A DNA stretch of 44,740 nucleotides, from contig JBFRWD010000170.1 in NCBI GenBank assembly GCA_051439425.1, forward strand, positions 1 to 44,740, read 5' to 3'. Below are positions 5,700-36,238 of the stretch, piece after piece. Made by a program: the position numbers and the translations under genes. Under the pieces are notes generated by a model. It saw only the letters and a program-made list of their open reading frames with translations, searched no databases and was not told the origin of the DNA. The stretch's first letter is position 1, and the number at the start of each line of letters is the position of its first letter. This DNA comes from Synechococcus sp. Its GTDB lineage: Bacteria; Cyanobacteriota; Cyanobacteriia; Thermostichales; PCC-7336.

Positions 5700-5797
5700 A
5701 CTCGAGCAGGTGCTAGATCGGTCTGTATCAGTGCGAATCTGGCAGCTTCAGACATCACCAGATTATCTCAGGAACTGTATGGAAGGATGCTGGCAGC

Positions 5798-6412: not shown

Positions 6413-6418
6413 TCGTCC

Positions 6419-12956: not shown

Positions 12957-13257
12957 CTTCCAAGAGAGCAGGCGAGTGGGTACTGTCAGCTGCAGCTGAT
13001 TGGTCCCTGAAACTTGTGAGAAATGCGGGTGCTCTCTCTTGGCCTGACAGTGGTTTGGGATAGATCGCCCACGAGGTCTCAACTACTCAAGACCTGTATT
13101 TCTGGATATCATTCATGCTGTTGCGCTCTATTTAAGTGCAACAGAGGGTTGCGCACACAATCTGTCTGGACAACGTTAGGTGGAAAAGAACCGAGTCGCT
13201 AGAGTCGCAGGCAAATGGATTTGCGAACAAATATAGCGTTTGGTGAGGCGACTTTGT

Positions 13258-13524
13258 ATGCGTGGTTTAAGGCGGCTAATTCCTCAAGATCTTCAGGATT
13301 CTCTGAATGCCAATCCTATTTTTCAGTGGATTGTCGTTGTTCTGCTGGGGTTTGTCGGACTCTCGTTTGTTTTCACAGGTTTCAACGGAGTAAAGAACGG
13401 GCGCATGAGGGGAAAGTACGGGCGGGTACTGGAGGGAACCGCTGCAAAATTTCTCGGGATCGTCTATATCCTGCTAGGAATTATCATGTCGGGCTTGGCG
13501 GTATCAATGAAGCTGACATCGTAA
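13258..13524 (+). CDS. Small hypothetical membrane protein (two TM helices)
   Basis: Track ORF 13240..13524, with ATG at 13258. Two clear hydrophobic segments (WIVVVLLGFVGLSFVFTGF; FLGIVYILLGIIMSGLAV) are linked by a basic loop (RMRGKYGRVLEG). Confidence 0.6.
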   Translation: MRGLRRLIPQDLQDSLNANPIFQWIVVVLLGFVGLSFVFTGFNGVKNGRMRGKYGRVLEGTAAKFLGIVYILLGIIMSGLAVSMKLTS

Positions 13525-13757
13525 ATATATATATTGATCTCCGCAATCCGCTACGGAAGGTTTTCCAATCATCTCTTCTTGTCAATTTAGGCTTTGAGCT
13601 ATCTACAGACTCCAGACCTCAGAGCGGATTGCCATTCATCACAGCTAAGGTTAAGAACTGGAACGACAATCCACCGCGATTGGGCGACTGCTGGTATTCG
13701 AGAGAGAGGGCACTGCTTGGCGATCGCCGTCATGTCCCCGTTGTTATCAGTAAAGAC

Positions 13758-15785: not shown

Positions 15786-15841
15786 TCTCTCTCTCAATCA
15801 CTCTTTGTATAACTGTGGTTCCAAGTCTTGGGGATATCGTC

Positions 15842-18517
15842 ATGAATGCCGAATGCCAACGCCTAGACGAATGCCGCGATCTCCAAATCCCTTGGAAGCG
15901 CTGGGGGCCGTATCTCAGCGAACGGCAGTGGGGCACGGTGCGCGAAGACTATAGCGAGCATGGCGAAGCCTGGGATTATTTCTCGCACGACCAAGCCCGA
16001 TCTAGAGCCTATCGCTGGGGGGAAGATGGACTGTTGGGAATTTCGGACGACCAACAGCAGTTATGCTTTGCGATCGCATTGTGGAACGGTAACGACCCCA
16101 TCTTGAAAGAGCGCATCTTTGGCCTGACAGGGAATCAGGGCAACCACGGCGAAGACGTCAAAGACTATTATTTCTATCTCGACAGCACCCCCACCCATTC
16201 CTACATGAAGGGGTTGTACAAATATCCCCAAGCCGCATTTCCCTATCACCAGTTAGAGCGAGAAAACCGCGATCGAGAGCGAAGGGATATGGAATACGAA
16301 CTGCTCGACACCGGAGTGTTTGACGAGAACCGTTACTTTGATGTGCGGGTGGAATATGCCAAGGAATCGGCAGACGACATACTCATACGCATCAGCATTA
16401 GCAATCGCGGCCCCGATCCCCATACTGTGCACCTGCTGCCCACCTTATGGTTTAGGAACACATGGTCGTGGCACTCAAGCTCCGCCCCTCCCGTTTTGAA
16501 AGAGCAATCGAGTAGAGACAATCTCCACGTTGTGCTCGCTTCTCACCCCAGCTTGGGACAGCGGTGGTTGTATTGCGAGCAGGCCGATCGCCTTCTGTTC
16601 ACCAACAACGAAACCAACGTTCAGCGTCTGTTCGACGTAGAGAATGGTAGCCCCTACGTCAAAGATGGAATTCATCGATATGTGGTGGGCGGGGAAACGG
16701 ACGCGGTTAATCCCGATATGGTGGGAACGAAAGTTTCTCCCCACTACCTGCTAGAGATTCCTGCTGGGGCCACTCGGGTGGTGCTATTGCGTCTTTGCGA
16801 TCGCTACGATATCGATCGACCATTTGGCCCCGAATTCGATACGACTTTTCAGAACCGCTTGGCTGAAGCAGATGAGTTCTTTGCCAGCCTCAACCCCAAG
16901 CCTTTTAGCGCGGATTTAAGCAATATTCAGCGACAGGCGATCGCCGGTTTGTTGTGGAGCAAGCAGTATTACTACTACGACGTTGAAGATTGGTTGCAGG
17001 GAGATCCGCAGCAGCCGGCCCCGGAGGATGCCCGTCGCAGGGGTCGAAATCGCCAGTGGCGTCACCTTAACGCTGCCGACATTATCTCCATGCCAGACAA
17101 ATGGGAATATCCCTGGTTTGCCGCTTGGGATTTAGCATTTCATGCCGTACCGCTGGCGATCGTGGATGTAGAGTTTGCCAAGACCCAGCTCGATATCATG
17201 ACGCGGGAATGGTACATGCACCCCAACGGCCAGCTCCCGGCTTATGAGTGGGCTCTTGGGGATGTCAATCCTCCCGTGCATGCCTGGGCTACCTGGCGAG
17301 TATACAAGATCGAACAAAAGCAGCGGGGGCAGGGGGATCTGCAGTTTCTGGAACGGGTGTTTCAAAAGCTCTTGCTCAACTTTACGTGGTGGGTCAATCG
17401 TAAAGACACCGATGGCAACAACGTCTTTGAGGGGGGCTTTTTAGGACTGGACAACATTGGTGTGTTCGATCGCAGCGCCCCCCTACCCACCGGCGGACGC
17501 ATCGAGCAGGCGGATGGCACCAGTTGGATGGCGATGTACAGCCTCAATATGCTGACCATTGCACTGGAGTTAGCTCGACACAATCCTGTCTACGAGGATA
17601 TGGCGACCAAGTTCTTCGAGCATTTTTTGTATATTGCCGATGCCATGAATCATGTTGGGGATACCAAAACCCAACTGTGGGATGAAGAGGATGGCTTTTT
17701 CTACGATGTGCTGCATTTACCGAACGGGGAGCGAATTCGGCTTAAAGTGCGATCGATGGTGGGGTTGATTCCCCTGTTTGCTGTTATGACGTTGGAACCC
17801 GAATTACTCAAGACGCTACCTGGGTTTAAGGAACGGTTGGAGTGGTTTGTCGAGTACCGCACCGACCTCAAGCGTAATGTCGCTTGTATGGAGATGCAGG
17901 GGGAAGGAGCGCGGCGCATGTTGGCGCTCTGTTACGTCACTCTAGACCGAGTAGAGGGTGGCGATAAGCTGCGTCGCATTCTGTCAAAGTTATTGGATGA
18001 ATCGGAATTTCTCAGCGACTACGGTATTCGAGCCCTGTCTCGCCACCATGCAGACTCTCCTTACATCTTTCACGTCAATGGAGAACAGCATCGGGTGGAT
18101 TACGAACCGGCAGAATCCAGCAGTGGATTGTTTGGGGGCAATTCCAATTGGCGAGGCCCCATTTGGTTTCCGGTCAATTATTTGATTATTGAATCACTAC
18201 AAAAATTTCACCATTACGTTGGAGATGACTTTTGGGTGGAATGTCCGACCGGGTCAGGAAATATGATGACGTTGTGGGAGGTGGCGGCAGAGCTGTCGCG
18301 GCGGCTGATTCGCATTTTCACACAAGATGAATCCGGCCGCAGGCCGCTGTATGGAGGCATCGAGCCGTTCCAAACGGATCCCCATTGGCACGACTCCATT
18401 TTGTTTTACGAATACTTTCATGGGGATAACGGAGCTGGAATTGGAGCTAGCCATCAAACGGGCTGGACTGGGTTAGTCGCCAAGTTGATCCAGCAAAGTG
18501 GAGATTCAATTATTTGA
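15842..18517 (+). CDS. GH63-like / MGH1-like glycoside hydrolase (glucosidase)
   Basis: [85 protein letters not shown]. Confidence 0.92.
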
Positions 18518-22712: not shown

Positions 22713-25628
22713 ATGAGAACGTATCAAGCTGGTGGCAGTCTCGATGCCCAACATCCTTACTACATTCGACGTCAAGCCGATCGCCAGCTCTACGAAGCTC
22801 TGATAGCCGGAGAATTTTGTTCAGTATTGAATGCCCGTCAGATGGGGAAATCCAGCCTGATGGTGCAAGTAATGTCGCAGTTGCAGAACGTAGACATACG
22901 CTGCGCCACCATCGACATGTCCCGCATTTGCGGCGAGGGGGTAACGCCAGAGCAGTTTTATAAGGGGATGGCGATTGAGCTGTGGAGAAGTCTGGGGCTG
23001 ATGGGCTCGTTCGATTTGCTGGGAACTTGGCGCGGGTGGGGGGACCTGGCTCCTGTTCAGAAGTGGAGTCTGGTCGTCGATCGCCTGCTGGACAATGTGC
23101 TTGAATCTTTCGAGCTTGAATCTTTCGAACTTGATTCTGCTGGTGCGGCGCTCTTGGGCAACCATATCTCGAACCGGCAAATCTCGAACCAGGAAATCCC
23201 GAACAAGCAGACTTCGATGCGGCTAGTTGTGTTTGTGGACGAAGTGGATAGTGTGTTGCACCTGCCATTTCCGGTGTACGACTTTTTAGCTACGCTGCGC
23301 TCCTACTACAACCAACGCAGTATCAAATCCCAGTACAACCGCCTCACGTTTGCTCTGTTTGGTACGGCAACCCCTGCAGAGTTGATGGGCGATCGACGTG
23401 CGACTCCCTTCAATATCGGAACGGCAATCTCCCTCTCTGGATTTGAGCGACAGGAAGCACAACCACTCGCTCGCGGTTTGGAAGGTTATACCCATAACCC
23501 AGATGAAGCGTTGCAGGAGATTCTGGCCTGGACGGGCGGCCAACCATTCTTGATGCAACGGGTTTGTCGATTGGTGACCGAACGGGAGCCCGCAGAAGAC
23601 GAGCAGATATCGGATCGTCAGTTAATCGCAGACATCGTGCAATCGCGTGTCATCGACAATTGGGAGTTGCAGGATGTTCCCGAACACCTGCGCACCATTC
23701 GCGATCGCCTTACCCGCACTCCCGCTACAGCCAATCGGTTGCTGGGTCTCTACAAACAGGTGCTGCAATCCGACATAGGCCAACCCAATTGCGATCCTTC
23801 TCAAGATGGCGATCCTGCTCAAGCAGATAAACATCCATCTTCAGTCGATGGTAAGCACCCCTATTACGATCTAATGCTGTCGGGCATTGTAAGTGACGAT
23901 CTAGGACAGATCCGGGTAAAAAATCCGATTTATCGAACCATCTTTGATGAAAATTGGGTAGAAGGACAACTTGCCGAACTGCGGCCCTATGCGGTCTCCT
24001 TCGAGCGCTGGTTAAGCTCTCGGGGCGATCGGGCGTTTCTGTTACGGGGGGTGGATCTGGACGAGGCTCTGGCATGGTCGGCTAGCCGCCGCTTGGGCGA
24101 TGAGGACTATCGATATTTGGCTGCTAGTCAGGACTTAGCCAAACAACAAACCCTTGCGAGTCTCGATGCCCTTGAACGGGCCAGTCAAGTACTGGCGGAC
24201 TCCCGTCAACAGGCTCGGGTTGATAATCGCAGCCCAGCACGAAGATGGATGGGGACGTTTGCGATCGCCATCGGTACTGCGATTCTGATTGTGGTACTGC
24301 GCGCGATTGGCGTGCTGCAGGGTTGGGAATGGAACGCTTTGGATTTAATGTTTCGCTGGCGGGCCATGGAACCTCCCGATGCTCGAATTGCGATTGTGAC
24401 TGTAGATGAGCAAGATATTGAAGCCGTTGGACGCTGGCCCTTACCCGATGCGGTTTTGGCCGAAGCTATTTCCGCCCTTAGGGAGCGTCAGCCTAGAGCC
24501 ATCGGCCTCGATTTTCATCGCAATTTACCTGTGAATCCCGGCCACGAGCAATTGGTGGACATATTTCGCACCACCCCGCAATTGGTGGGGATCGAGCGAG
24601 CGATTGGCGATCGCTTACCGGCGGCTCCCGAGTTAGAGCGGAGGGGGCAGGTCGGATTTTCCGATGTGGTGTTGGATAGTGACGGCACCGTCAGGCGGGC
24701 GCTGCTATCGGTTCAGTTAGTGGAGGGAGATATTCGGCAGAGTTTCGCAGTCCGTCTGGCCTTGAACTATTTGCAAGACGAAGAAATAAGCGTGGCTCCG
24801 GTGGAGGGCGATCCTGGACGCTTGCGGGTTGGTCAACAGATATTCGAACGGTTTGAACCGAATGATGGGGGGTATGTCCGAGCGGATGCCGGCGGATTTC
24901 AGGTGTTGCTCAACTATCGAGGCCGCACTGATGATTTCGACACAATACCGTTGCGGGAGGTGGTACAAGGCAATATTCCAGATGAACTGGTGCGCGATCG
25001 CGTCGTGCTGATTGGCCTCACCGCTCAGAGCGCCAGCGATTGGTTCCTCACCCCCTACAGCGATCGCTGGTTTGGCTTTCCCAACATTTCTCCCGGTGTG
25101 GTTATTCATGCCAATACGCTCAGCCAAATCCTCAGCGCTGCTCTGGACGGTCGCACGCTAATTCGCATGTGGCCCGCCTATCAAGAGGTGGTTTGGATTG
25201 TATTGTGGGCGATGGTTGGCAGTGCCCTTGCCCAAACGGTGCGATCGCTGCTGCGACTCACAATTGCCGTGCTGATAGCCGAAGCGCTATTAGTCGCAGG
25301 ATGCATGTGGGTGTTTGGGTATGGGTGGTGGATTCCGAGCGTCCCTCCCCTGCTTGCCTGTGGAATTGCTGCAGGAGTTACGGCCACAACCTTAGAGCGG
25401 CGGCGAGAGTCTCAACTATTTCGCAGCACTCTCGTTCGGTTGCTGGAGATGCAGGCCCGCGATCCAGTAGTTGGACGGATTGCGTTGGAATATTTGCGCC
25501 AGTCAGAGCCCCCTGCTCGACAGAGGCTGGTGGAACAGCACCTCAATTCCGTTCAACCACCAAATTTACTCATTTCTGGGGACGAGCAAGGGGGAGGAGA
25601 TCGAGCTGAGTTCGGCGTAGTCGAGTAA
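22713..25628 (+). CDS. AAA_35/STAND-like NTPase fused to TM-CHASE2-3TM sensor
   Basis: YQAGGSL, YIRRQAD, Walker A NARQMGKSS, Walker B VVFVDEVDS, TPFNIG, WTGGQPFL. Then TM and CHASE2 (IAIVTVDEQDI, WPLPD, IGLDF, DSDGTVRR, VLIG, GVVIHA), three TM helices and a short tail. Confidence 0.9.
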   Translation: MRTYQAGGSLDAQHPYYIRRQADRQLYEALIAGEFCSVLNARQMGKSSLMVQVMSQLQNVDIRCATIDMSRICGEGVTPEQFYKGMAIELWRSLGLMGSFDLLGTWRGWGDLAPVQKWSLVVDRLLDNVLESFELESFELDSAGAALLGNHISNRQISNQEIPNKQTSMRLVVFVDEVDSVLHLPFPVYDFLATLRSYYNQRSIKSQYNRLTFALFGTATPAELMGDRRATPFNIGTAISLSGFERQEAQPLARGLEGYTHNPDEALQEILAWTGGQPFLMQRVCRLVTEREPAEDEQISDRQLIADIVQSRVIDNWELQDVPEHLRTIRDRLTRTPATANRLLGLYKQVLQSDIGQPNCDPSQDGDPAQADKHPSSVDGKHPYYDLMLSGIVSDDLGQIRVKNPIYRTIFDENWVEGQLAELRPYAVSFERWLSSRGDRAFLLRGVDLDEALAWSASRRLGDEDYRYLAASQDLAKQQTLASLDALERASQVLADSRQQARVDNRSPARRWMGTFAIAIGTAILIVVLRAIGVLQGWEWNALDLMFRWRAMEPPDARIAIVTVDEQDIEAVGRWPLPDAVLAEAISALRERQPRAIGLDFHRNLPVNPGHEQLVDIFRTTPQLVGIERAIGDRLPAAPELERRGQVGFSDVVLDSDGTVRRALLSVQLVEGDIRQSFAVRLALNYLQDEEISVAPVEGDPGRLRVGQQIFERFEPNDGGYVRADAGGFQVLLNYRGRTDDFDTIPLREVVQGNIPDELVRDRVVLIGLTAQSASDWFLTPYSDRWFGFPNISPGVVIHANTLSQILSAALDGRTLIRMWPAYQEVVWIVLWAMVGSALAQTVRSLLRLTIAVLIAEALLVAGCMWVFGYGWWIPSVPPLLACGIAAGVTATTLERRRESQLFRSTLVRLLEMQARDPVVGRIALEYLRQSEPPARQRLVEQHLNSVQPPNLLISGDEQGGGDRAEFGVVE
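23100..23210 (+). repeat. Two arrays of 15-bp tandem repeats inside the AAA-CHASE2 gene
   Basis: CTTGAATCTTTCGAR x2 plus a partial copy (23100-23138; LESFE). ATCTCGAACCGGCAA / ATCTCGAACCAGGAA / ATCCCGAACAAGCAG (23166-23210; ISNRQ ISNQE IPNKQ). Confidence 0.85.
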
Positions 25629-26576
25629 TGATTGCCAGGTCTCATCTAAGCTCTCACTGCTCGCGTCTTCTGCAGCAACCGTGGCGTTGTTAGACGAGCT
25701 GGCCTGAACGAACGCATCCACTGCGTCATACCACTGGCCTTGACGGGCATAGTCTTCGGCCCTGGCTAGTGCCGTGGTGGGGGTAGGGTTCCAGTTAGCA
25801 AGACTAGAAGGGGAATTTACTCTACGAATCCGTATTGAGGTGGCGGGATCGTTAGGACTGGGGGCGTTTCCACAGAGGGCGATCGTTGCCCACACGTAAT
25901 TCGTGTCGGGTTCCAGCGGAGGAGCGTCATCGGGCAATTGCAGGGCAACCCACTGGCTGTTGGGTGGCATGTCGAGTGTTGTTTGCGAGTGGAACTGTTG
26001 GCTATCTTCCTCGCGCACGCTGAGCAGAATGCGTCGAACGGAGGCAATGGGTTGATAGAGCCATACGGTTGGTTTTTCTCGTTCGGTCAGACCCATAATT
26101 TGCGGGGGGGGCGCTAATGCAGCGATCTCCAGTTCCGGACTGGCAGTTGAGTCGGTGGATAGAGCTGAGCTGCTGGTTAGCAGCCCCGAGGAGTCCATGC
26201 ACTGAGCGTTACGCCGACCTCCTCCTAATGTGTTTTGAGGGGCTGGTTCTTCTGGAGGAGGGACAAAGGGGAGTAGGCCCAGTTGAATTGTTCGGTCCAG
26301 CGATGGTCGATCTTCGCCAGGTTCTGAGCTGTTTAACTCGTTTGCATTGCGGGTTTCTTGCTCTTGCGATCGCGCCGTTTCCATCTCCCTTGGCATTGGT
26401 GTTGATGCTGGCGTTGACGTTTGGATTTGCGCACTGACAGGAAGTCCGGATACCGAGATGACTATTAGTCCAAATCCGAGCCCGAATAGAGTTGGGAGAC
26501 TGGATGGGGGCATGGGGGTCAATCCTTGTAATCTAGCTTTCAAGCCCCGTAATTTATTCAATTGCATCACATACAT
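25566..26576 (-). CDS. DUF928 domain exported protein
   Basis: Signal-like segment ending VSAQ, FVPPP...APQNTLGGGRR..C, ALAP...GLT...PTVWLY.P, LPDDAPPLE...YVW...C, YARQGQWYDA, WQSLL. Confidence 0.88.
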   Translation of the reverse strand: MYVMQLNKLRGLKARLQGLTPMPPSSLPTLFGLGFGLIVISVSGLPVSAQIQTSTPASTPMPREMETARSQEQETRNANELNSSEPGEDRPSLDRTIQLGLLPFVPPPEEPAPQNTLGGGRRNAQCMDSSGLLTSSSALSTDSTASPELEIAALAPPPQIMGLTEREKPTVWLYQPIASVRRILLSVREEDSQQFHSQTTLDMPPNSQWVALQLPDDAPPLEPDTNYVWATIALCGNAPSPNDPATSIRIRRVNSPSSLANWNPTPTTALARAEDYARQGQWYDAVDAFVQASSSNNATVAAEDASSESLDETWQSLLDYAELSSISSPLLVPRNE

Positions 26577-26654
26577 TCCTTGCGATCGATGCCTGAGTGA
26601 ACTATCTAAATCTCGTCTACACTTGTTTCGATCGGCCCCTTCTGGACAGAGATA

Positions 26655-29477
26655 TCACAGCCAATTTCCCACCAAAACGAAGGGAGCCCAATAAAACGGG
26701 TGGGAGTATTGAGAGGAGTGAAGCAGAGCAAGCTGGGCCTGCTGCAAAGCTTTTGCTTTGCTGCTGTTTCCCTGTTTCAGAACGGTGTAAAACTCGCCGA
26801 TCGCATCTGCAGTCGAAGCATCCTGAACGGCCCACAGTGTCGCCACCGTACTGCGTGCCCCCGACCGCACCGCCATTCCCGCCAAGCCTAACGCGGCTCG
26901 GTTATCTCCCACTGCTGTTTGGCAGGCACTGAGCACCAATAGCTCGATCGGACGATCGCGCCGACTGAGTAACAGCGCATCCAGATCTTTGACGTTAATG
27001 CGATCGTTCCACGTAATCAGAAACGTATCTTCCGAGCGGGATGACAGTTGGGCGTGGGAGGCAATATGTACCAGCGGATAGGTCGCTGTCATTGCTAGCT
27101 CCTGAAACCGCTCTCGCGTGAAATCGCCATCCAAGATCGCATCAGTGGGGGCAAGTTCGGCAATCTTGGCAACTTCCTGTTTGACCCCCGGTAGCGAGGC
27201 AAACCCTTGCCGGGACTCTGCTATTCCGCCCGCCAGAACATTGGTATTCTCCAGCGCTAACACCTCAGCATCCAGTAGTTGCAATCCGGGCGTCAGGGAA
27301 ACGGCGTAACTCTCGATTAGATATCGCTCGCCATCGTGCAACGCTGCCACAGGAATTCCGCGTAGATATCCGTCCAGAACAAACACCAATGTTTCGATGT
27401 CGTTGTTTTGCAACGTGGTTTCGGCAGGCCGAATGAGCCAGTCGTACAGTTGCTGATGGGGCTGGAGGGGAGTCGGACTGAAATAAGCTGGGTTTAACTC
27501 ACCCAACAAGTGTTCGAAGGTTTGTTCCACCAAAGCCGTTCCCTGCCCCTCGGGGGCGAGAGCGAAGTCAGTCGAGTAGAGCATCAGAGGCTGATTGGCG
27601 ACAGACAAAATAACAGCCAATCGTCCGGGCAGCAGAATCGAGTAGAACACGGCTGCCTTGGAGTCGATCGCATCGATGGCCTGCTCCTGCTGAGTTTCGC
27701 AGGCTTCGCGAAAGTAATCGTTCAGCTCTGCCAACTGCAAAGATTCAATAGCCGATCTGGCTTGCTGAAGCTCTGCTTGGGTCGGATTTTCTGGCTGCAA
27801 AAGCAAGTCAACGTATTCTCGATAGACGGGTTCGACGCTGTCTCGAAAGTTGAATTGAATTTCGGGTGAGACAGCCACTAGATCGGTTCTCAGCCCATCC
27901 AGCGTATTGACCGCCAGCCGGTAGGCATTCAAGGCGCGCTCTCGCTCTTCTGTCTGCCGGTAAATACGTCCTAGTTGCCACTGCCAAAGATAGGCGGCGC
28001 TAGGAACATCAAAGGCTGTAATTTTTTGCAGAGCTTGAGTGGTGAACTGATTGGCTCTAGACTCGTCACCCATTTGCAGGGCGATCGCACCCATATAACC
28101 GAGAGCGAAGGACTCAGAGACACCATCTCCCAATTCTTCGGCGCGATCGCGAGCGATCTCTGCGTAGCGTTGCAACTGGCTCCAGCTTGGCTGCGATTGA
28201 CGATCTGCCTCTGAATTGGGCTCAGAAGGGGGAGTGTATGGCTGGCAGTCTTGTAGCAGGGGGGATTGGACTCCGTCTGTTCCTCTCGATTGGAGACACA
28301 TCCCGGTTTGGATGAGATTGAGGCGAGCTGTGATGGTAGCGCTGCTGTTCGGCAGATCTTCGATACGGGTTTGCAACGGCTCCAACGGAGGAAGAGAGAG
28401 AGTTGTTACCCCATCGGTACGGGCGGCCAGGGCTGCTTGGTTCAAGCGAGCTTGTAATGTTTCGAGGTCAGAAGGGGAGCTAGCGGCCTGCTGAAAGCAT
28501 TGGTTGGCTTGGCGAAAAAAAGCGGCAGGGTCAGTTGTTTCGAGAGGCTCTGTGCAACTTGTGGGGGATGGGGGAACAGCCTCTGGTTGCTCTGAACGGG
28601 GTGTAGATTGGTTCGATTGGCGGATTCCTAAGGCTTGGGCTGTGTTGCCGAGCGCGATCGCCCATTGGCCACCCAATAGTGTGGACTCAGATGGTTCCAG
28701 CAGCGGCCCTATCGCAATCAATAGGTCGTAGGACGATCGCAGTTGCCCCGTGACGCGCAGCATCGTTCCTAGATTGAGTAAGGCTTGCAGTCTTAAGGAT
28801 GAGGGTAGTTCGGCACTGGAGGATTCGGCAGAAAAAAGTGTTTCAGGATTGGGAAGCTGGCAGCGATCGCTATCTTCTCCCAACACCTCCAGCAAGTTGG
28901 TACAAGCACTGGAGTACAAACCCAGAGTTTGTCGGGCGCGGGCTTGGTTGATTTGGCTGGAAGCTGTGCGATCGGTAATTCCTAATTGTCGATAGATTGA
29001 TTCAGTCTCTTGCCATAGAACCAACGCATCTCTAGATTGTCCGGTAGAGAACTTCAGTTGAGCTTGAGTGTCTAGTGCATTGGCCAGTACCCGCTGTTGA
29101 TCTGGATTTGCGTCGTAACGGCGGAGGATACTGATGCTCGTTTGAACGGAGTCACTAGCGTCCGACCAGCGGCCTAACTGTTGCGCACTGAGGGAAAGAT
29201 TGGTTAGGGCCATAGCCTGATTGAGGTGATCGCCTTGCTCCTCAAAAGAATTGGCAGCTTGCTCCCATATTGGTAGAGCCTCAGAAAAGCGCTCGGATGT
29301 ATAGAGTTCTTGAGCGGTTTCAACCAACTGACCCACATCGGACTGGGCGTTAACAGGTTGGTTGCTGTGAACAGAGAATACGGTTAGTACAGCAATGCTG
29401 AAGACCAGAACAGAAGCGATCGTGGCAATGATACGTTTCCATTGCCTTATCTTCCTCCATTGTCTGGCGGTAGTCAT
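26655..29477 (-). CDS. Exported TPR-CHAT (caspase-like) protease
   Basis: N-terminal hydrophobic signal/anchor, TPR helices, YLWQWQLGR, FNFRDSVEPVYRE, LQLAELNDYF, LYDWLIRP, catalytic His in HIASHA and Cys in LSACQT, HPFYWAPFVLVGNWL. Confidence 0.93.
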   Translation of the reverse strand: MTTARQWRKIRQWKRIIATIASVLVFSIAVLTVFSVHSNQPVNAQSDVGQLVETAQELYTSERFSEALPIWEQAANSFEEQGDHLNQAMALTNLSLSAQQLGRWSDASDSVQTSISILRRYDANPDQQRVLANALDTQAQLKFSTGQSRDALVLWQETESIYRQLGITDRTASSQINQARARQTLGLYSSACTNLLEVLGEDSDRCQLPNPETLFSAESSSAELPSSLRLQALLNLGTMLRVTGQLRSSYDLLIAIGPLLEPSESTLLGGQWAIALGNTAQALGIRQSNQSTPRSEQPEAVPPSPTSCTEPLETTDPAAFFRQANQCFQQAASSPSDLETLQARLNQAALAARTDGVTTLSLPPLEPLQTRIEDLPNSSATITARLNLIQTGMCLQSRGTDGVQSPLLQDCQPYTPPSEPNSEADRQSQPSWSQLQRYAEIARDRAEELGDGVSESFALGYMGAIALQMGDESRANQFTTQALQKITAFDVPSAAYLWQWQLGRIYRQTEERERALNAYRLAVNTLDGLRTDLVAVSPEIQFNFRDSVEPVYREYVDLLLQPENPTQAELQQARSAIESLQLAELNDYFREACETQQEQAIDAIDSKAAVFYSILLPGRLAVILSVANQPLMLYSTDFALAPEGQGTALVEQTFEHLLGELNPAYFSPTPLQPHQQLYDWLIRPAETTLQNNDIETLVFVLDGYLRGIPVAALHDGERYLIESYAVSLTPGLQLLDAEVLALENTNVLAGGIAESRQGFASLPGVKQEVAKIAELAPTDAILDGDFTRERFQELAMTATYPLVHIASHAQLSSRSEDTFLITWNDRINVKDLDALLLSRRDRPIELLVLSACQTAVGDNRAALGLAGMAVRSGARSTVATLWAVQDASTADAIGEFYTVLKQGNSSKAKALQQAQLALLHSSQYSHPFYWAPFVLVGNWL

Positions 29478-29636
29478 TGAAATGCTGCTCCCGCTAGCTC
29501 ACATGGACATTGGGTGGGGGGCGCAGAAAGTTGTCTTGCTCTCTCAATCTAATTAGTTGACTAGAACTGCAGTTATATACTTCTTATCTCTTAAGCTCAG
29601 ACGCATATGCACGTGTCTGGCAGCTTACGAGCCTGA

Positions 29637-31877
29637 CTAGTGGCCCGAACACAAACCGCTATGGCTGGGAAGTCGCTGAGAGGCTATCTCAGCCGGATCG
29701 TGAGCAGTTAAAAGCACTTCACCCTTGTCATTCCAGACCCATCCCCAAGCAGGTGTAACTCCAGCTGCTTGAGCTATAGATTCGCCCTCAAAGCTGTCAG
29801 AGGGGAATGAGCTTTCAGAATCTCGATCTGGTATGTCCACAGGTTCGGCTAAATCGGTTGGTATCAGCCCCTCTGGAGAAAGAGTATTTCCAGGGCTAGA
29901 AGGAATTCCCCCACTTCCTTCGACAACAAATTCACTCTCAAATCCCTCTGGACAGGGGCTGGCAGAGACAAGACTGTCGATATCTACAACTGTGTCAGGT
30001 AGCGATTCTAAGTTATTGCTGGGGTCGAGGTCGGGAGTGTTGAGTTTTACGAGGCCACTGAATTGAGGCCCGAGGGCAGAACTTGCTGTGATGTCGCTTT
30101 CTGGAGTAAGACGATCTCGAAATTCGGTACCCAAAATACCTTCAGCATTAATTGTGATCGTACCCCCGAAGTTATTAATGGCGTTTGCAGTGATGTCACT
30201 GTTCTCTAAGGCAACTAGATTATCAACATCAATTCGAATATTGCCGCCAGGGTCTTGTCCCGATGCATCTGTAGAAATGCGACTGCCTCTCCTTAGGATT
30301 AAATCTCTAAGGAATAGGTTAATGTTACCTCTATCTCCAATTGTTTCTGCAGATGTTTGAGAGTCGATGAGAGCGTTATTGTCGAACTTTAAATCTTCAG
30401 CGGTGATAACCAAAATATTTCCAGCATCACCGGTTCCTTCCGCAGAGGTAGAAATAAAGGCTCCATCGCGTAAGGAGAAATTTCCAGCATTGATATTTAT
30501 ATTTCCTGCATTACCTGCCCCAAAGCTTCGGCTACTAAGACCTGACGGAAATATTTCTCCGTTAGAAAGAAGCCCTTGAGCACTGATGTCTATCGAGTTG
30601 TTAGCTGTGATATCAATATCTCCACCAGCGCCATCTTCAAAGGTTTCGCTGAGAATCTGAACCCCATTCCGCAAAGAAAGTGTGTTCGATTTAATACTGA
30701 TATTCCCCGCCATACCAAGACCTAGTGTTGAGACCCCTAATGTGATAAATCCACTCTCAGCATCAACATCTATAACATCGCTATTAATTTTAATATCCCC
30801 TCCATCTGCATTAGAAAGTGTCCCTGCTCGAATACTGGTTTCAGGACCAATAGTAAGCTCGCTTGACTTAAACAAAATGTCACCTGCGTTACCCCGTCCA
30901 ACAGTTGTAGAACTGATAGCTACCACTTCAGTAAGTTCAATCAAACCGGGAGAGTAGAGTGTAATATTCCCACTATTTCCTGGGTCAAAAGGACTTTTTG
31001 TAGAAAAGATCGCTGTGCCCAAACCTAGAGATAGAGGGTCTCCAAACAAGGTTACATCTCCACTTGAGATTGAAGATAAAGGAGGAGGAGGTGTAATGAT
31101 CGAAGTTTGTTCTAAAATAGTCGAACCATAATGGTCAATGTTTTCATAGTCGACAGAAAAGCGATTTGACGAAAATTTGATATTAGCTGAACCATTATCA
31201 CCCACAGCTCCAATAGTAACAAAACTACCCTGCGAAGATATTATGGTATTAATTAATGATATGTCACCACCTATAAGAGCGATCTCGTTGCCGCTACTTA
31301 CTTGAAAGCTAGCTCCATCTGAAAAAATTGAAGCAGGTTCTCGAAATAACAAAGAAGTTGGAACATTGACAACCAGCTCTAGAGGAATAGTATTAGCTTG
31401 TTCGGCACTAAAAGCAAAATCTTCATCAAAAACGATACTTTCTGCTGTTGAGGCAACAAAAGAGCCATTCAATTGCAGGCTTGTATTTGAATTGAAAAAT
31501 ATTCCATTTGGGTTAACAAAAAATAGGTCGGCATTTCCAATGACACCCAATCTACCATAAATATCCGATGGATTGTTGCCAGTAACTCTTGAAAAAATTG
31601 AAGCGATCTCTTCGCCGGTTGATGAATTTAACGCATCAAAGAAAACATCGCTGGAAGTATCAACATTAAATTCCTCGAAGCTATGGAAGAGTAGCTCTCC
31701 TCGTTGCTCACCACCAATAATACGTTTAATATCTCTTCCTTCAAAGATATCATCAACAATGTTAGTTGAGGTTGAGCCATCGCGGATCAATCTTTGCGCG
31801 TTAACTTTCGAGTCTGACTGAATAAATGCCAGTAGAATCCCTAAAAATGATATAGCTGAAATGAGAGGTCTATTCAT
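29637..31877 (-). CDS. Filamentous-haemagglutinin-family exoprotein (TpsA)
   Basis: Signal peptide ending VNAQ, TPS domain (LFHSFEEFNV, IFSRVTG, FFVNPNGI), G-x-A-G-N/D-I beta-helix repeats, SDITASS, C-terminal GGIP...AWGWVWNDKGEVLL. Confidence 0.92.
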   Translation of the reverse strand: MNRPLISAISFLGILLAFIQSDSKVNAQRLIRDGSTSTNIVDDIFEGRDIKRIIGGEQRGELLFHSFEEFNVDTSSDVFFDALNSSTGEEIASIFSRVTGNNPSDIYGRLGVIGNADLFFVNPNGIFFNSNTSLQLNGSFVASTAESIVFDEDFAFSAEQANTIPLELVVNVPTSLLFREPASIFSDGASFQVSSGNEIALIGGDISLINTIISSQGSFVTIGAVGDNGSANIKFSSNRFSVDYENIDHYGSTILEQTSIITPPPPLSSISSGDVTLFGDPLSLGLGTAIFSTKSPFDPGNSGNITLYSPGLIELTEVVAISSTTVGRGNAGDILFKSSELTIGPETSIRAGTLSNADGGDIKINSDVIDVDAESGFITLGVSTLGLGMAGNISIKSNTLSLRNGVQILSETFEDGAGGDIDITANNSIDISAQGLLSNGEIFPSGLSSRSFGAGNAGNININAGNFSLRDGAFISTSAEGTGDAGNILVITAEDLKFDNNALIDSQTSAETIGDRGNINLFLRDLILRRGSRISTDASGQDPGGNIRIDVDNLVALENSDITANAINNFGGTITINAEGILGTEFRDRLTPESDITASSALGPQFSGLVKLNTPDLDPSNNLESLPDTVVDIDSLVSASPCPEGFESEFVVEGSGGIPSSPGNTLSPEGLIPTDLAEPVDIPDRDSESSFPSDSFEGESIAQAAGVTPAWGWVWNDKGEVLLTAHDPAEIASQRLPSHSGLCSGH

Positions 31878-31963
31878 ATCTTTATGAACCTAACTCAAAA
31901 TATTCCTAGGATACATGCGACCGAATGATTACTATGCTTTAGCTCTATATATGCAATCTTATT

Positions 31964-32038
31964 GCCGCCCCAAGGGCCGACAGGCCGCTTGTCCCCGCAG
32001 CAAGCTGACAGGGAATGGGCGACCCTTTTTTGATCGAT
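31964..32038. repeat. GC-rich hairpin element related to 3209-3245
   Basis: TCCCCGCAGCAAGCTGACAGGGAATGGGCGACCCTTTTTTGATC in an AT-rich intergenic region. It aligns with the reverse complement of 3209-3245 (CGCGGCAAGCCACGGGGAATCAGACCCAATAGTGATT). Confidence 0.5.
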
Positions 32039-32043
32039 CAACC

Positions 32044-32457
32044 TTAAGGACAAGATGTTGAGTTCGTACTACTCTGTATGCATTGTTTGGGACCTGACCC
32101 TGGTATGTTTACCGTTCCAGGAAAGCAGTTTCCACCCACACTTTTTTTGATATAGCATTGAACTACATTAACTTGCTCGTTTTTTGGGTTTACCTGAGAA
32201 CTATCACCTTTGTAACATCCCACCGCATTCGTTGCTCCCCATACTTTCCATTTAGATCTAAAAGTACCTAATGTTCCATTCGATTTTATATAAATCCCAT
32301 CGCAATTTTTCTTTTCCTTAATAAGGACTGCTGGCACAATTGGGCTGAGTGCATTTGCCGGTAATGTAACTGAAGAAAACAGTATCAACGTGATGGATAG
32401 CGTGCACATCAAGCTCATGAAAATGTTTCTCAACTTTGACTGAAGTCCTAAACTCAT
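32044..32457 (-). CDS. Small exported Cys-rich hypothetical protein (137 aa)
   Basis: GGAGAGG SD, signal peptide ending LPANA, six Cys in a basic mature region. AT-rich. Confidence 0.8.
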   Translation of the reverse strand: MSLGLQSKLRNIFMSLMCTLSITLILFSSVTLPANALSPIVPAVLIKEKKNCDGIYIKSNGTLGTFRSKWKVWGATNAVGCYKGDSSQVNPKNEQVNVVQCYIKKSVGGNCFPGTVNIPGSGPKQCIQSSTNSTSCP

Positions 32458-32718
32458 AAGTTTCCTCTCCTCTTTTCTGAAGACTTTAAGTCAACGTTGC
32501 TAAACATAGTCAAGATCTAATAATATCTTAAAGATCAGCTTGATAGATTGATTATATTAGGTTTAAAATTATAGAAATTAGTCATCATTAATACAGCTTA
32601 TTCTTGCAAGCAAATCATGATGTCTTGAAAAGCATTGCTTTAAGTTTTGAATTATCTTTTGGTTCTTGCAATAAGCAAGTTTTTTGTAGATGAACTTAAA
32701 TCGTATGTATCTACATGG

Positions 32719-34512
32719 CTAAAATGGTGAATAAGTGATTTGAAAGAGCAGGCCACTCTCTTGTAAGGTTCTCTCTCGATTTGGCCTATCTATCAAAGGG
32801 ACCCCCCAATCTAGTCGAGCATTAAATTCATCACTCATTTGCCATTGCGCTCCAATGCCAACTCCTAATAAATCTGAATCATCAGGATCGCCCCTGTTCC
32901 CGACATTCCAGCCAACGCCATAGTCAATGAACGGAATCAGTTTAAACACTCCATCCACTGACGAAATTCTGAAGATAGGAAATGCTGTTTCGGCGGAAAT
33001 AAACCAGCCGCTATCTGTCAGGAGGGAATCCTGACGATATCCGCGAACGCTATTTAATCCACCTAAGTTGAACTGCTCCTGGATCAGTAGCGGGCGATCG
33101 GCCAACTGAAGATTGGAACGTGTTGAAAACAAAATGTCGGCGGGGAATCTACGGACGTATTGCACTTGACCTTGCCAAGTAACAAAGCTACTGTCCGGAT
33201 AACTAGAATTGTCGGTCGCACCAAATGCATCCAAACCGACACTGACTTGAGAACGGGCTGCAAACACATCGTTGACGCTCCGCTCCGTCCAATCTTGTGA
33301 AAGTCGCAACGCTGTTATCCGGACGCGGCCATCACGATCTGCCCCCTCAGACAACCGCACTCCTTGACCAAATATTTTGGTTTGACTGGACTGCCCCGTC
33401 ACTGCCAAGCCAACAGCCACTTCTCGATTGGGGTTACGCACGATCGGCTGTCGAAACCCCGCACTCCAATAAAAAGACTCTCCAGTTAAATCGATACGAT
33501 CGAAGGGGTCTTCTACAACTTCTGTATCGTTAAGACCTCCCGACAATTCAAACGTTCCATCCCGTCCATTGAATGGAATGCTGTACGAGAAGTCCCCAGC
33601 ATTGCTGCCATCAGTATTGGTATACGTCCCCATCAGTTCATCGCCAAATCCCAACAGGTTACGGTGCCCGAGGGTAATCCCTCTGCGAATGGTTCCGACT
33701 GAAGGCACCCGTCCGTTGTTCGTAAAAATTTCTAAGCGAAATGGATTTGCTTCCTCTACTACAATCGCCAAAACGCCTGAGTTAGCCCGAGTGCCCGCCG
33801 ACAAATCAGCAGAAACCGAATCGATCAGAGGGTCAAGTTGTAGCAGCTGCAGGGCTTCTAAAATTTTCTGTTGATTGAGGGCACCCGCTGTTGCTACTTC
33901 CAAACGGCTTCGCAGGTAAGAGTCCCTCAATCGACGAGTTCCCGATATCTCGATCGCTTCCAGCTCCCCTTCAATTACGCTGACTGTCACGACTGCATTC
34001 GTGGGAGATAGTGCTTGGTTGGCCTCAATAACTGCTCCAGAACTGATAAAACCGTCCTGCGAATACACCTCTTCAATAACCGTTTCAACTTCCAACAACT
34101 CCACAAAAGTTAGCGGTTTACCGACATAACGTTCAAGAGTGGAGGCTAGTTGGCGATTGCTAAACGCCGTATTCCCTTCAAACTCAAACCTTTCAACGAC
34201 GATTGTTGCTGGAGCGACAGGAGCATCATCCCAACCCTCTTCCGCAGATGTATCGGATAGTGGCTCCTCTTCATCACTGCTGTCAGAGGATGGTGGTGAT
34301 TCTGGCAGCGTTAACTGTGCAATATAAGTGCGACAACTATTCGTATTCGTGTGGAAAGCTGGCGAGCTTGCAACAGCAGAGCCGGTGCTTCCAGAGAGGC
34401 CAAGCATACCGGTCATTCCGAAGGATATTATCCCCGCCAATCTTAGCTTCAGAGCAATAGAGAGTTTATGAGAAGGGAGTATTACTGCCAATGGCTCGGT
34501 TCCAAGTGACAT
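32719..34512 (-). CDS. ShlB/FhaC/HecB-family outer membrane transporter (TpsB)
   Basis: POTRA domains (VERFEFEGNTAF...Y...GFISSGA; VIEGEL), VRGY loop motif, FIDYG, C-terminal Phe. Confidence 0.94.
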   Translation of the reverse strand: MSLGTEPLAVILPSHKLSIALKLRLAGIISFGMTGMLGLSGSTGSAVASSPAFHTNTNSCRTYIAQLTLPESPPSSDSSDEEEPLSDTSAEEGWDDAPVAPATIVVERFEFEGNTAFSNRQLASTLERYVGKPLTFVELLEVETVIEEVYSQDGFISSGAVIEANQALSPTNAVVTVSVIEGELEAIEISGTRRLRDSYLRSRLEVATAGALNQQKILEALQLLQLDPLIDSVSADLSAGTRANSGVLAIVVEEANPFRLEIFTNNGRVPSVGTIRRGITLGHRNLLGFGDELMGTYTNTDGSNAGDFSYSIPFNGRDGTFELSGGLNDTEVVEDPFDRIDLTGESFYWSAGFRQPIVRNPNREVAVGLAVTGQSSQTKIFGQGVRLSEGADRDGRVRITALRLSQDWTERSVNDVFAARSQVSVGLDAFGATDNSSYPDSSFVTWQGQVQYVRRFPADILFSTRSNLQLADRPLLIQEQFNLGGLNSVRGYRQDSLLTDSGWFISAETAFPIFRISSVDGVFKLIPFIDYGVGWNVGNRGDPDDSDLLGVGIGAQWQMSDEFNARLDWGVPLIDRPNRERTLQESGLLFQITYSPF

Positions 34513-34846
34513 CCAAAATGCTAAGAATCACAATTGAGATGAGAGCCAAAATAAATCTAAAATTTATTTCAAGTGAAGCCTAAAGATAACTTACTATCTC
34601 TGAATGGTTGATGCAAATGAAATCTCTCTTTCTCAAAACAACTATGAGGAACGAAGAAACCCTGTCAGACTGATTCCAAATTCGTTGCTAATTGATAGCA
34701 ACCCTCCATGCTGCCAAGCGATTGCCCTAGAAAAACTGTTATCGCAATCCGCTGTAAGGTTTGAAGGGTAGTAGATCGCAAAATGCCTTTGTTTGCAGAG
34801 AAAAATGCCAGGAAACTCTCAAAATCAGATTGGCTATCTCACTATA

Positions 34847-36238
34847 TTAATCCCTGTTATTGGCAAGTCGAGACTGAAAATACACTCTGTATAAGCCACA
34901 GCTGAATCCTAATTGACCAGTTATTGTGTCGAGTAACCCCAAACTATTCAAACGGTGCAAAACATGGGGCTCTAAGTTCGCGGATTCTGTGGCATTCAAA
35001 ATTAACCGCACAGCATTAAGAAGCTCCGGTCGATCGCTCAGTGTCTCCCACTGTCGCTGTAGGTGGTGGCTGTAAATGCCGCTGTGGGTGGCTGCCGTTG
35101 ATAGCAATTCTGACAGGTCGGTGCTTCCTCTACTCAGGTGATAGATGGCCACATGTACCAATGCAGGCTGTCCTCCCAGCACCGTACTCAGTTGGTTGAT
35201 ATCGGTCTCCGACAGTGCGACTTGGTAGCGTTGCGCTAACTGTTGGATGTCTCGATCCGTGAATGGTGTTACTTGGACAGGCAGGCCAACATTAAAAGGA
35301 GATTGGTGGTAGTTCAACTGCACGTACACATCGGTGGAATGCACCATCACAATGCGCAATTTTTGCCAAACGGGAATTCTCTTTGACTCCTCGTACCACG
35401 AGCGAATTAACGGTAGGAAATCCTGAGCAATATTAGGATATTCAAAGATTTGATTAACCTGATTGATCACTAAGATTACTGGCCGCTCGACAGTATCCAA
35501 AATTGTCTGCAAGCATAAGGTGCTGCTCAGTTTGCACCCCATTTCTGCATCCCAATAATTGTCGAGATTTGACTTGAGCTGTAGTTGGAATGCGATATTG
35601 ACCAGCATCCACCGCAACAGGCGATCGAGGTGGGTCAAGATATCGCTATCCGCCTGCTCGAAATTAATGTAGACGCTAGTAAAGCCTTTCTGTTTGAGAG
35701 TATCTAAGACCCTCAAAATAATTGACGTTTTTCCCATTTCCTGGGGGGCTTTTAAGCGCACTAGTGCTCCCGATTGAGTTAATTCCTGCTCGATTTTGGT
35801 CTCAATCTCCGTGCGTTCGATATAAAAATTCGAACCGAGGGAAATGGCGCCGCTAGGATATTGCGAGGACTTCAAAATAGGACTCGATGCTTCATTATGC
35901 GATGCACTATTGGCACTGGAGTCCGGTTCTGGATTCTGGGGTTGTGCAACTAGCGCTTCAGACTGCTCTTCGAAATATCGCTTGAGAGCTTCTTTGAAAT
36001 TTGTCTTGCGGACTTTTTCTCCCAAAGACTCAGACAAAATCTTCCAGAGTTTGGGAGCTACATCTTGACTGATATATCCGGTTGAATATTGGGCTTTTGC
36101 GGCAATGGTGTCGTAATCGCTACGCTCCCAAGAACCTTCGAATACAACCGTCTCAATGTCGGTGAGATACCGATTGGCGGTGGTATGGACCAACTGATTA
36201 GCCAGTCTGAGGGCTGTCTCCAGGTTAAATGCTGTCAT
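34847..36238 (-). CDS. HTH-like domain plus AAA_35/STAND-like domain protein with degenerate Walker B
   Basis: N-terminal L...E..VFEGSW...Y..IA....YS.GYI..DVAPKLWK.LS..LGEKV.K.NF domain seen on cyanobacterial NB-ARC/AAA proteins. Then YPSGAI.L.S.FYIER, KAPQEMGKTS, ILVINQVNQIF, QSPFNVG, GGQPALV. Confidence 0.88.
   Translation of the reverse strand: MTAFNLETALRLANQLVHTTANRYLTDIETVVFEGSWERSDYDTIAAKAQYSTGYISQDVAPKLWKILSESLGEKVRKTNFKEALKRYFEEQSEALVAQPQNPEPDSSANSASHNEASSPILKSSQYPSGAISLGSNFYIERTEIETKIEQELTQSGALVRLKAPQEMGKTSIILRVLDTLKQKGFTSVYINFEQADSDILTHLDRLLRWMLVNIAFQLQLKSNLDNYWDAEMGCKLSSTLCLQTILDTVERPVILVINQVNQIFEYPNIAQDFLPLIRSWYEESKRIPVWQKLRIVMVHSTDVYVQLNYHQSPFNVGLPVQVTPFTDRDIQQLAQRYQVALSETDINQLSTVLGGQPALVHVAIYHLSRGSTDLSELLSTAATHSGIYSHHLQRQWETLSDRPELLNAVRLILNATESANLEPHVLHRLNSLGLLDTITGQLGFSCGLYRVYFQSRLANNRD

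Follow-up and report, generated by a model that had tools for sequence, protein, structure and literature searches.

The 44,740-nucleotide contig JBFRWD010000170.1 of Synechococcus sp. (assembly GCA_051439425.1), which was analysed as one entire contig of a host genome of ~4.8 Mb and is referred to here as the window, carries a seven-gene locus that represents a real, widespread and apparently undescribed gene set. On balance, and narrowly, the set is best read as a trans-envelope signalling system in which a CHASE2-bearing STAND receptor and a STAND partner with a helix-turn-helix (HTH) domain would together control transcription, with DUF928 as the input and a possible cut by a CHAT protease. 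In its predicted make-up the set is a combination of two plug-in modules, an input module consisting of TpsB/TpsA, CHAT and DUF928 and an output module consisting of the split STAND pair, both members of which are AAA_35 proteins. Comparative support is good for the split STAND output, support for the link between DUF928 and CHASE2 is fair, and the proteolytic and strain-identity steps are put forward as hypotheses. As the first-pass annotation of this DNA had described, the list of open reading frames (ORFs) contains six minus-strand ORFs that converge on a single plus-strand ORF, and the domain content that it had given was confirmed for all seven genes. The host genome features one DUF928 gene, one two-partner secretion (TPS) gene and one strong CHAT match, all at the locus, and totals of five CHASE2 genes and four AAA_35 genes. 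The seven-gene set is found again across cyanobacteria with its gene order shuffled; since it recurs in this way and the sole DUF928 gene and the sole TPS gene of the genome both lie here, the grouping goes beyond chance.

Recurrence was assessed on loci from other genomes (numbers with the prefixes G, L and C are our handles for genomes, loci and contigs). A profile of the receptor C-terminal tail found matches in 38 genomes out of 401 for the class and in 60 out of 401 for one order. Sixty of these places, taken together with flanks of up to 15-17 kb, held 55 intact AAA_35-CHASE2 genes, one split gene and four longer proteins, of which the one that was scanned is CHAT-nSTAND1-CHASE2. Further loci included 80 AAA_35 loci, 63 metagenome loci, 20 stretches from relatives, and 30 short and 20 long loci anchored on DUF928. 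Neighbouring genes were labelled by our own profiles seeded with the window proteins, and the counts are lower bounds because overlapping ORFs can be dropped, as happened to the DUF928 gene of L113. Loci shorter than 18 kb were excluded from the main counts (21 of 101 receptor loci, and 6 of 34 and 26 of 69 control loci), and the CHASE2 control set is skewed towards DUF928 because it was partly collected through DUF928. The DUF928/CHAT/TpsA core stands beside 59 of 80 AAA_35-CHASE2 genes versus 1 of 43 other B-type AAA_35 genes, which bears out the conserved linkage of the two AAA genes with this core that had been proposed. CHAT is found in 41 and TpsA in 46 of the 80 receptor loci. The earlier statement that tpsB-tpsA-CHAT-DUF928-CHASE2 neighbourhoods recur in cyanobacteria holds for DUF928, CHAT and TpsA and needs correcting for TpsB, which is linked in only 11 of the 80. 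Nor is the core specific to the AAA output, as it also accompanies CHASE2 receptors with cyclase, GGDEF and kinase outputs. The unlabelled neighbours, whose 45 largest clusters were judged on size alone, yielded no other conspicuous recurring gene family.

The receptor features the AAA_35 and CHASE2 architecture that is present in 119 of its best 120 homologues, and its nearest named homologue, from Synechococcus sp. PCC 7336, is 61% identical. The Walker A motif reads RQMGKSS (aa 42-48) and the Walker B motif DExD (aa 176-179); in 99 B-type sequences the Walker A Lys is conserved in 99, the Walker B Asp in 99 and the Glu in 98. The transmembrane stretches were assigned from hydropathy, and the number at the C-terminus is inferred. 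A sequence search of the PDB with the CHASE2 domain gave nothing useful. The outputs of 37 other CHASE2 proteins are cyclase (14), GGDEF (6), histidine kinase (6) and Ser/Thr kinase (2), and the remainder have an N-terminal CHAT domain (5), CHAT-nSTAND1 (1) or nothing recognised (3). One single-chain CHAT-nSTAND1-CHASE2 protein (L274:141-4520) ends in the same C-terminal tail as the receptor and represents another STAND family coupled to CHASE2. Proteins of 1370-1420 aa in G020, G026 and G417 resemble it.

AAA_35 proteins occur as two types, A with an N-terminal effector and without a sensor, and B with a C-terminal sensor, and the two types adjoin in 38 of 43 control loci. The first 100 amino acids of the window A-type protein, HTH-AAA, match atlas clusters of HTH_VMAP-M9 (PF26355) at 0.90-0.92. 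The predicted structure is a confident helical model (predicted local distance difference test, pLDDT, 91.9) whose fold matches include PAB2304 (Z 21.0), SSO1545 (Z 20.0), CED-4 (Z 17.7) and plant NLRs, and a PDB sequence search gave nothing useful. The P-loop, helical and winged-helix fold with Walker A and B motifs that identifies STAND proteins is found in the A type by the model and in the B type by motifs. The extra domains in a scan of 27 long A types are TIR, CHAT, caspase, trypsin, kinase, cyclase, GGDEF and EAD4. An HTH is present in 52 of 56 A types that lie beside CHASE2-bearing B types versus 24 of 54 beside other B types. HTH-AAA genes lie close to 43 of 80 AAA-CHASE2 genes versus 0 of 28 other CHASE2 genes, and in length-matched loci of 18-28 kb the counts are 17 of 35 versus 0 of 24. 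The partner does not, as had been asked of these loci, always accompany the receptor. In 8 of 11 genomes tested that are without a linked partner, one unlinked HTH-A orthologue is found elsewhere, 7-20 points above the genome's own other AAA_35 genes, with an identity that roughly mirrors that of the receptor. The ATPase-domain trees of receptor and HTH-AAA agree (Mantel r 0.90, the same nearest neighbour in 31 of 44 pairs), and the agreement does not reflect the species tree alone because two G482 pairs lie far apart in the A tree. The A-type Walker B motif drifts, unlike the near-invariant B-type motifs, and window HTH-AAA, which keeps the Walker A Lys and has an amide-substituted Walker B (N259-Q260-x-N262), is probably unable to hydrolyse ATP. 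Since the B-type Walker motifs are almost invariant and the A-type Walker B drifts, the B type is probably the catalytic sensor of the pair and the A type a helper that hydrolyses ATP little or not at all. The host genome also features a second A-type HTH-AAA_35 gene (G000:C180:328-1749) and a second B-type AAA_35 gene (G000:C178:45055-48696), which lie on separate contigs and are unpaired in the assembly.

A screen of spaced 4-mers upstream of the module genes placed TGAG/ATGA at a 12-bp repeat among the top motifs upstream of receptor, HTH-A and tpsA genes; the receptor and HTH-A upstream regions are shared DNA where these genes diverge. The resulting box is ATGAG-N7 in two or three copies. 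Seven perfect triplets and 18 strict doublets (ATGAG-N7-ATGAG-x-TT) were found in 4.83 Mb, all within receptor loci, and 15 of the 18 doublets belong to a single HTH clade with a recognition helix in common, where they fall in 9 of the 11 loci, the other 3 doublets being on short contigs. Seven boxes stand 71-221 bp before a receptor gene. Further boxes lie ahead of genes for Nif11 precursors (two), small Cys peptides with a leader (two), M15 and S8 peptidases (one each), an SLH protein and a Tll0287-like protein. Period-12 repeats common to two intergenic sites were found in 12 of 44 paired loci versus at most 1 of 71 controls. Another HTH clade (L294/L295 of G707, L189 and L042) has a 10-bp-period repeat that is TATCAACTTT-like and occurs at two intergenic sites in 2 of its 3 loci. 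The window HTH is sister to the ATGAG clade and its recognition helix is different, and the exact ATGAG pattern has 0 sites in the whole host genome. An 11-bp-period triplet ~92 bp before the HTH-AAA start beat 40 of 40 shuffles; it was one of 60 tests, is not kept in G202 and was rejected. The transcriptional output that had been proposed is thus indirectly supported by the clade-specific tandem repeat of the sister clade and not by a box in the window, and the regulon claim for the window is carried over from relatives because its HTH differs in the helix and no box was found.

On the input side, CHASE2 lies within 1.5 kb of 25 of 30 DUF928 genes, which is the tightest link of the input genes, and the window DUF928 gene overlaps the receptor 3′ end by 63 bp. 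Within the receptor chain, DUF928 identity co-varies more with CHASE2 (partial r 0.64) than with AAA (partial r 0.29) in the first 45 loci. The predicted fold consists of an Ig/FN3 part and a helical, TPR-like part (pLDDT 82.6), with MtxA (4Z29) as the best fold match (Z 10.3, root-mean-square deviation 3.6, 151 aligned; next match Z 7.3). The PDB sequence search with DUF928 gave nothing useful, so that the likeness to MtxA is one of fold without a match at the sequence level. A prediction of the CHASE2 and DUF928 complex scored 0.18 against a mark of 0.32, without folded controls, and speaks neither for nor against a contact. Ahead of the folded part, in a Gly-rich N-terminal linker of low predicted order, DUF928 features a conserved motif that spans 17-22 residues from a Phe to a near-invariant Arg (R122 in 121 of 122 sequences, P113 in 121, C126 in 118, P107 in 117 and F/Y104 in 114). 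This Arg motif is a candidate cut site or tethered ligand and, among cut sites, the best candidate. A 75-aa leader-bearing peptide that features the motif as a stand-alone copy is encoded beside a CHASE2-GGDEF-EAL gene (L124:11683, minus strand). A matrix search of the host genome for such a peptide gave 33 matches, none convincing among the 25 listed.

The CHAT domain lies behind TPRs and its His-Cys dyad, which had been named as typical of CHAT proteases, is intact (His 45 of 45, Cys 45 of 45), which is the sequence signature of a clan CD protease. The His is followed by Gly in 38 of 45 proteins, and the window CHAT reads His-Ala. The conserved Asp886 (45 of 45) and Asp858 (44 of 45) would fit a basic P1 residue. 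A PDB sequence search found no solved relative. Separase cuts after Arg (PMC11506125). CHAT directly adjoins DUF928 in many loci. In G202 (L111:16489-19265, L112:267-1669) CHAT and tpsB each lie in two frames, which reflects decay or sequencing error, tpsA is absent with a HicA-like ORF in the gap, and the receptor, DUF928 and HTH-AAA are intact. Elsewhere, a TPS-CHAT fusion lies near an AAA_35-CHASE2 gene (L291:4837-8634), and an exported TIMP-like protein, possibly a protease inhibitor, is encoded near tpsA (L271:6331-6825). Export was judged from hydropathy alone, with a threshold of a 19-residue hydrophobic stretch. The export signals claimed for the inner products were recovered as such a stretch in DUF928, CHAT, TpsA and the small protein, and that of TpsB, which is below the threshold, is visible in the sequence. 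The N-terminal stretch is found family-wide in CHAT (44 of 45), DUF928 (101 of 122) and TpsA (36 of 46), and in HTH-AAA (0 of 75) and AAA-CHASE2 (1 of 99) it is all but absent.

TpsB and TpsA have the make-up of a type Vb pair, with POTRA domains and an Omp85-type barrel in TpsB, an N-terminal TPS domain in TpsA and co-oriented genes. The last 150 amino acids of TpsA contain exactly two Cys in 46 of 46 proteins, the body has a mean of 0.09 Cys, and the tail motif features Arg or Lys in 43 of 46. The TpsA body and the neighbouring small gene form a cassette with a third-position GC content (GC3) of 0.27-0.37, versus 0.54-0.57 for the receptor, DUF928 and CHAT. The small protein has six Cys in its mature part and one in its leader and gave no family or atlas match. 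A homologue in the same gene slot of G203 (L113) is 32% identical (score 82, reached by 0 of 2000 shuffles) and also features six Cys; a profile search returned these two alleles and three multi-repeat proteins, the latter unused. Between the window and G203 the receptor, CHAT, TpsB and the part of HTH-A in view are 80-82% identical, DUF928 62%, the TpsA tail 81% and the TpsA body 39%. In 22 close locus pairs, some of which may be paralogues, TpsA body identity has a median 28 points below that of CHASE2; repeat bodies evolve fast. Leader-bearing ORFs with at least four Cys lie just upstream of 5 of 51 tpsA genes versus 8 of 623 unlabelled genes, 1 of 45 CHAT genes and 0 of 194 DUF928 or HTH-A genes, and those upstream of tpsA look unrelated to the window small protein except for the G203 allele. 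The small protein, which had been included among the core parts, is a variable accessory. In pherotype peptide-receptor cassettes of the ComQXPA or agr kind the alleles of signal and receptor co-vary and lie between conserved flanks; here, there are two alleles only between conserved flanks. A closer strain features the same cassette allele at ~89% nucleotide identity with flanks at 94-95%, and frequent cassette swapping is weakened because of this.

The steps of the proposed signalling differ in strength. TpsB very probably exports TpsA, with the two-Cys tail staying periplasmic, which agrees with what is known of the family and with the sequence, and CHAT is in all likelihood an active protease. 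DUF928 is rather likely to be a direct partner of CHASE2 or the source of its ligand, as the linkage and co-variation suggest. CHAT might cut DUF928 after Arg122 and so free or unmask a F-x-x-P-P...G-G-x-R peptide, a tentative step with somewhat less than an even chance, and the TpsA tail may be an alternative CHAT substrate or an activator. The receptor STAND, with its intact Walker motifs, and the HTH-STAND, with its relaxed Walker B, would with good probability form a hetero-oligomer that resembles a sensor/helper NLR pair. The oligomer would probably activate transcription at direct repeats, for which the DNA motif comes from the sister clade and not from the window, and the activated genes would be those of the receptor and of secreted peptides and proteins. 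It is doubtful that the small Cys-rich protein and the TpsA body form an allele-matched pair that sets strain specificity. The steps could be joined into a self-recognition circuit, in which the polymorphic, secreted, disulfide-rich small protein binds the matching TpsA filament, the tail activates CHAT, an Arg-ended peptide that CHAT cuts from DUF928 is the CHASE2 ligand and the split NLR transcribes more secreted peptides and its own receptor without a kinase or second messenger; as a whole, this circuit is unlikely.

Several observations weigh against the signalling reading. No HTH-AAA is linked in 37 of 80 receptor loci, and no stand-out orthologue was found with the queries used in G734 (99% complete, 4 contigs), G811 and G282. 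In 21 of 80 receptor loci DUF928, CHAT and TpsA are all out of view, and an exported CHAT is present in only 4 of 20 DUF928-anchored loci of 19.5 kb. The intact genes of G202 indicate that the receptor, DUF928 and HTH-AAA can outlast the protease and the filament. The window TpsA tail motif features Ser at the Arg/Lys position, and a sister-clade matrix, three-genome footprinting and a triple-repeat scan found no DNA box in the window or its two closest relatives. The co-phylogeny and linkage can be explained by joint inheritance, and the Fisher P values for linkage overstate because kin are not independent. Additionally, CHAT specificity varies and craspases cut after Met or Leu (PMC11506125), so that, separase notwithstanding, DUF928 Arg122 is a candidate only.

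Four other readings were considered. Independent modules that ride the same mobile island by chance would account for the variable order and strand and for the low number of loci, 20 of 80, that show the full complement of four partners, but this is highly improbable in view of the control counts (0 of 28 and 1 of 43), the unlinked orthologue retained in 8 of 11 genomes and the clade-specific DNA box at no fewer than two sites of the same loci. Alternatively, intact DUF928 could bind CHASE2 with the Arg motif as a docking strand while CHAT acts elsewhere. The tightness of the DUF928-CHASE2 link agrees with this, as does G202, in which CHAT is frameshifted and DUF928 and both STAND genes are intact; however, this non-proteolytic role is quite unlikely, given the single case of a stand-alone leader-and-motif peptide beside a CHASE2 receptor (L124), the invariant Arg that closes a poorly ordered Gly-rich linker, and the many loci in which CHAT directly adjoins DUF928.

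Inside-out adhesin control of the LapD/LapG/CdrA kind, in which CHAT trims the TpsA tail, CHASE2 and DUF928 hold back or release the protease and a cytoplasmic cue is read by the STAND pair, draws on the resemblance of the invariable two-Cys tail to the CdrA cysteine hook (PMC7616799), on the periplasmic cleavage of CdrA by LapG (PMC4694147), on the basic residue of the tail motif and on the co-occurrence of CHAT and TpsA. It is distinctly unlikely, however, as 28 of 37 CHASE2 receptors have cyclase, GGDEF or kinase outputs that fit outside-in flow, the partner bears an HTH with a DNA box that tracks the HTH clade, and DUF928-CHASE2 pairs are common without a nearby TpsA (TpsA in 3 of 20 loci). 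A split NLR that senses a periplasmic phage or predator and triggers defence would be in keeping with the TIR, caspase, CHAT, trypsin and EAD4 domains of A types elsewhere, with the origin of HTH_VMAP-M9 in conflict systems (PMC8195603), with the periplasmic TPR-CHAT precedent of DdvA in Myxococcus (PMC11506125) and with the fast divergence of the surface protein. PADLOC 2023, however, had no match for any of the seven proteins, Pfam recognised no defence genes among the window neighbours, the partner beside CHASE2 receptors is nearly always of the HTH type (52 of 56) and the box-preceded genes encode secreted peptides and peptidases, which makes immunity very unlikely.

For the trans-envelope signalling reading, the systems compared were the STAND transcription activators MalT and AfsR and the sensor/helper NLR pairs. 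The locus resembles these in the STAND fold, in an HTH oligomer predicted to sit on tandem direct repeats and in two co-inherited STAND genes. Unlike these, it divides the sensor and the DNA-binding head between two proteins, has the HTH at the N-terminus and places its sensor domain, CHASE2, across the membrane. As a MalT/AfsR-like activator, the window protein has the HTH family match, and the tandem repeats are found in the sister clade and not in the window. The Npun2340/2341 family has a two-gene layout that was reportedly set out by Leipe in 2004, and the AAA_35 pair presumably belongs to this family, in the MNS clade. Like that family, AAA_35 comprises two subfamilies encoded by neighbouring genes, as in the control loci, and the best fold matches of the A-type model are the archaeal PAB2304 and SSO1545. 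The family is named within the MNS clade of STAND NTPases in PMC8195603, which also treats caspase-CHASE2 fusions and STAND conflict systems; the excerpt of that paper gives no account of the CHASE2 receptor form, its HTH partner or the envelope module.

In magnetotactic bacteria mtxA is followed by a CHASE2 adenylate cyclase gene (PMC4439547), and DUF928 is likewise an exported Ig and TPR-like protein encoded beside a CHASE2 receptor; the excerpt of PMC4439547 gives no ligand or mechanism for MtxA. Unlike in the MtxA case, the receptor neighbour here lacks a cyclase output, and DUF928 is 12% identical to MtxA. The protease is CHAT and not of the LapG family as in the Pseudomonas CdrA system, and the receptor is AAA_35-CHASE2 and not GGDEF-EAL. 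LapG is transglutaminase-like and not a CHAT protein, and LapD is a c-di-GMP receptor that signals inside-out. The shared features are a TPS filament with a C-terminal Cys pair, a periplasmic Cys protease and an inner-membrane receptor (PMC4694147, PMC7616799). DdvA/DdvS of Myxococcus xanthus likewise combines a periplasmic TPR-CHAT, a His-Cys dyad and trans-envelope transcriptional control, but DdvA is a membrane anti-sigma factor acting with an extracytoplasmic function sigma factor (PMC11506125), whereas here CHAT is apparently exported as a protein of its own, and a STAND pair forms the output. No DdvA-type anti-sigma fusion is present, as a short basic leader alone precedes the CHAT hydrophobic stretch, and no sigma factor was found among the window proteins scanned. 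PatX/PatP of Nostoc PCC 7120 is a cyanobacterial parallel for an exported precursor, a peptidase cut and an Arg-ended peptide signal; however, PatX yields HRGTGR, which inhibits cytoplasmic HetR (PMC12756182), and the DUF928 motif closes with G-G-[ST]-R, and its target would be a membrane receptor. In the literature searched DUF928 turned up in a single paper, which places it next to CHASE2 and WD40 genes (PMC5587647). The literature searched, which mostly excluded subscription journals, contained no report of CHAT, CHASE2 and DUF928 together or of the two-ATPase CHASE2/DUF928 set, and no CHASE2 ligand turned up in it.

Table 1. Features of the locus, in window positions.
Feature	Positions	Strand	Basis or remark
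Receptor: sensor STAND, AAA_35 B type-transmembrane-CHASE2-three transmembrane-short conserved tail	22713..25628	+	Pfam, CHASE2 E 2e-70
Exported DUF928 protein	25566..26576	-	Pfam
DUF928 N-terminal motif F104-x-x-P-P...P113-x-x-T-x-G-G-G-x-R122-x-x-x-C126	26199..26267	-	alignment of 122
Exported TPR-CHAT caspase-like protease (predicted), dyad His808/Cys852	26655..29477	-	Pfam, CHAT E 6e-59
TpsA: TPS domain, repeat body almost without Cys, C-terminal tail conserved	29637..31877	-	Pfam
TpsA tail, Cys642 and Cys743 (candidate cysteine hook), G-[RKS]-G-G-x-P motif	29637..29970	-	
Low-GC, fast-diverging cassette: TpsA body and small protein gene	29960..32700	-	GC3, identities, GC dip
Short repeated hairpin element	31960..32035	-	between small gene and tpsA
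Small exported six-Cys protein, polymorphic	32044..32457	-	no Pfam family
TpsB, POTRA and ShlB barrel, C-terminal Phe	32719..34512	-	Pfam
HTH-AAA: executor STAND, AAA_35 A type, N-terminal HTH	34847..36238	-	Pfam, AAA_35 E 1e-120

The hairpin element has 3 genome copies, a fold z of -2.2 and copies on many environmental contigs, and Rfam gave nothing over threshold for it. Promoter and terminator scans gave no signal above shuffle level. The region is mostly tiled by contigs of one sequencing run, possibly the window's own source, with even depth and 0-2 differences. Elsewhere in the window are a row of DinB-like polymerase, 2OG-Fe(II) oxygenase and PIN-domain genes (4632-6847), two ORFs without a Pfam match (7151-7813, 220 aa, and 8447-9607, 386 aa), an RTX calcium-binding repeat protein (10719-12956) and a pair of glycogen debranching and GH63-like glycosidase genes (13215-18517).

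The residues and sites singled out by the analysis are DUF928 Arg122, CHAT Cys852, the TpsA Cys pair and, in the sister clade, the ATGAG repeats. If the signalling reading is true, DUF928 and its partners would represent an input to a large family of receptors through which cyanobacteria drive cAMP/cGMP, c-di-GMP and kinase signalling, and the AAA_35 proteins would represent an NLR-type sensor/helper pair that acts as a transmembrane transcription switch.

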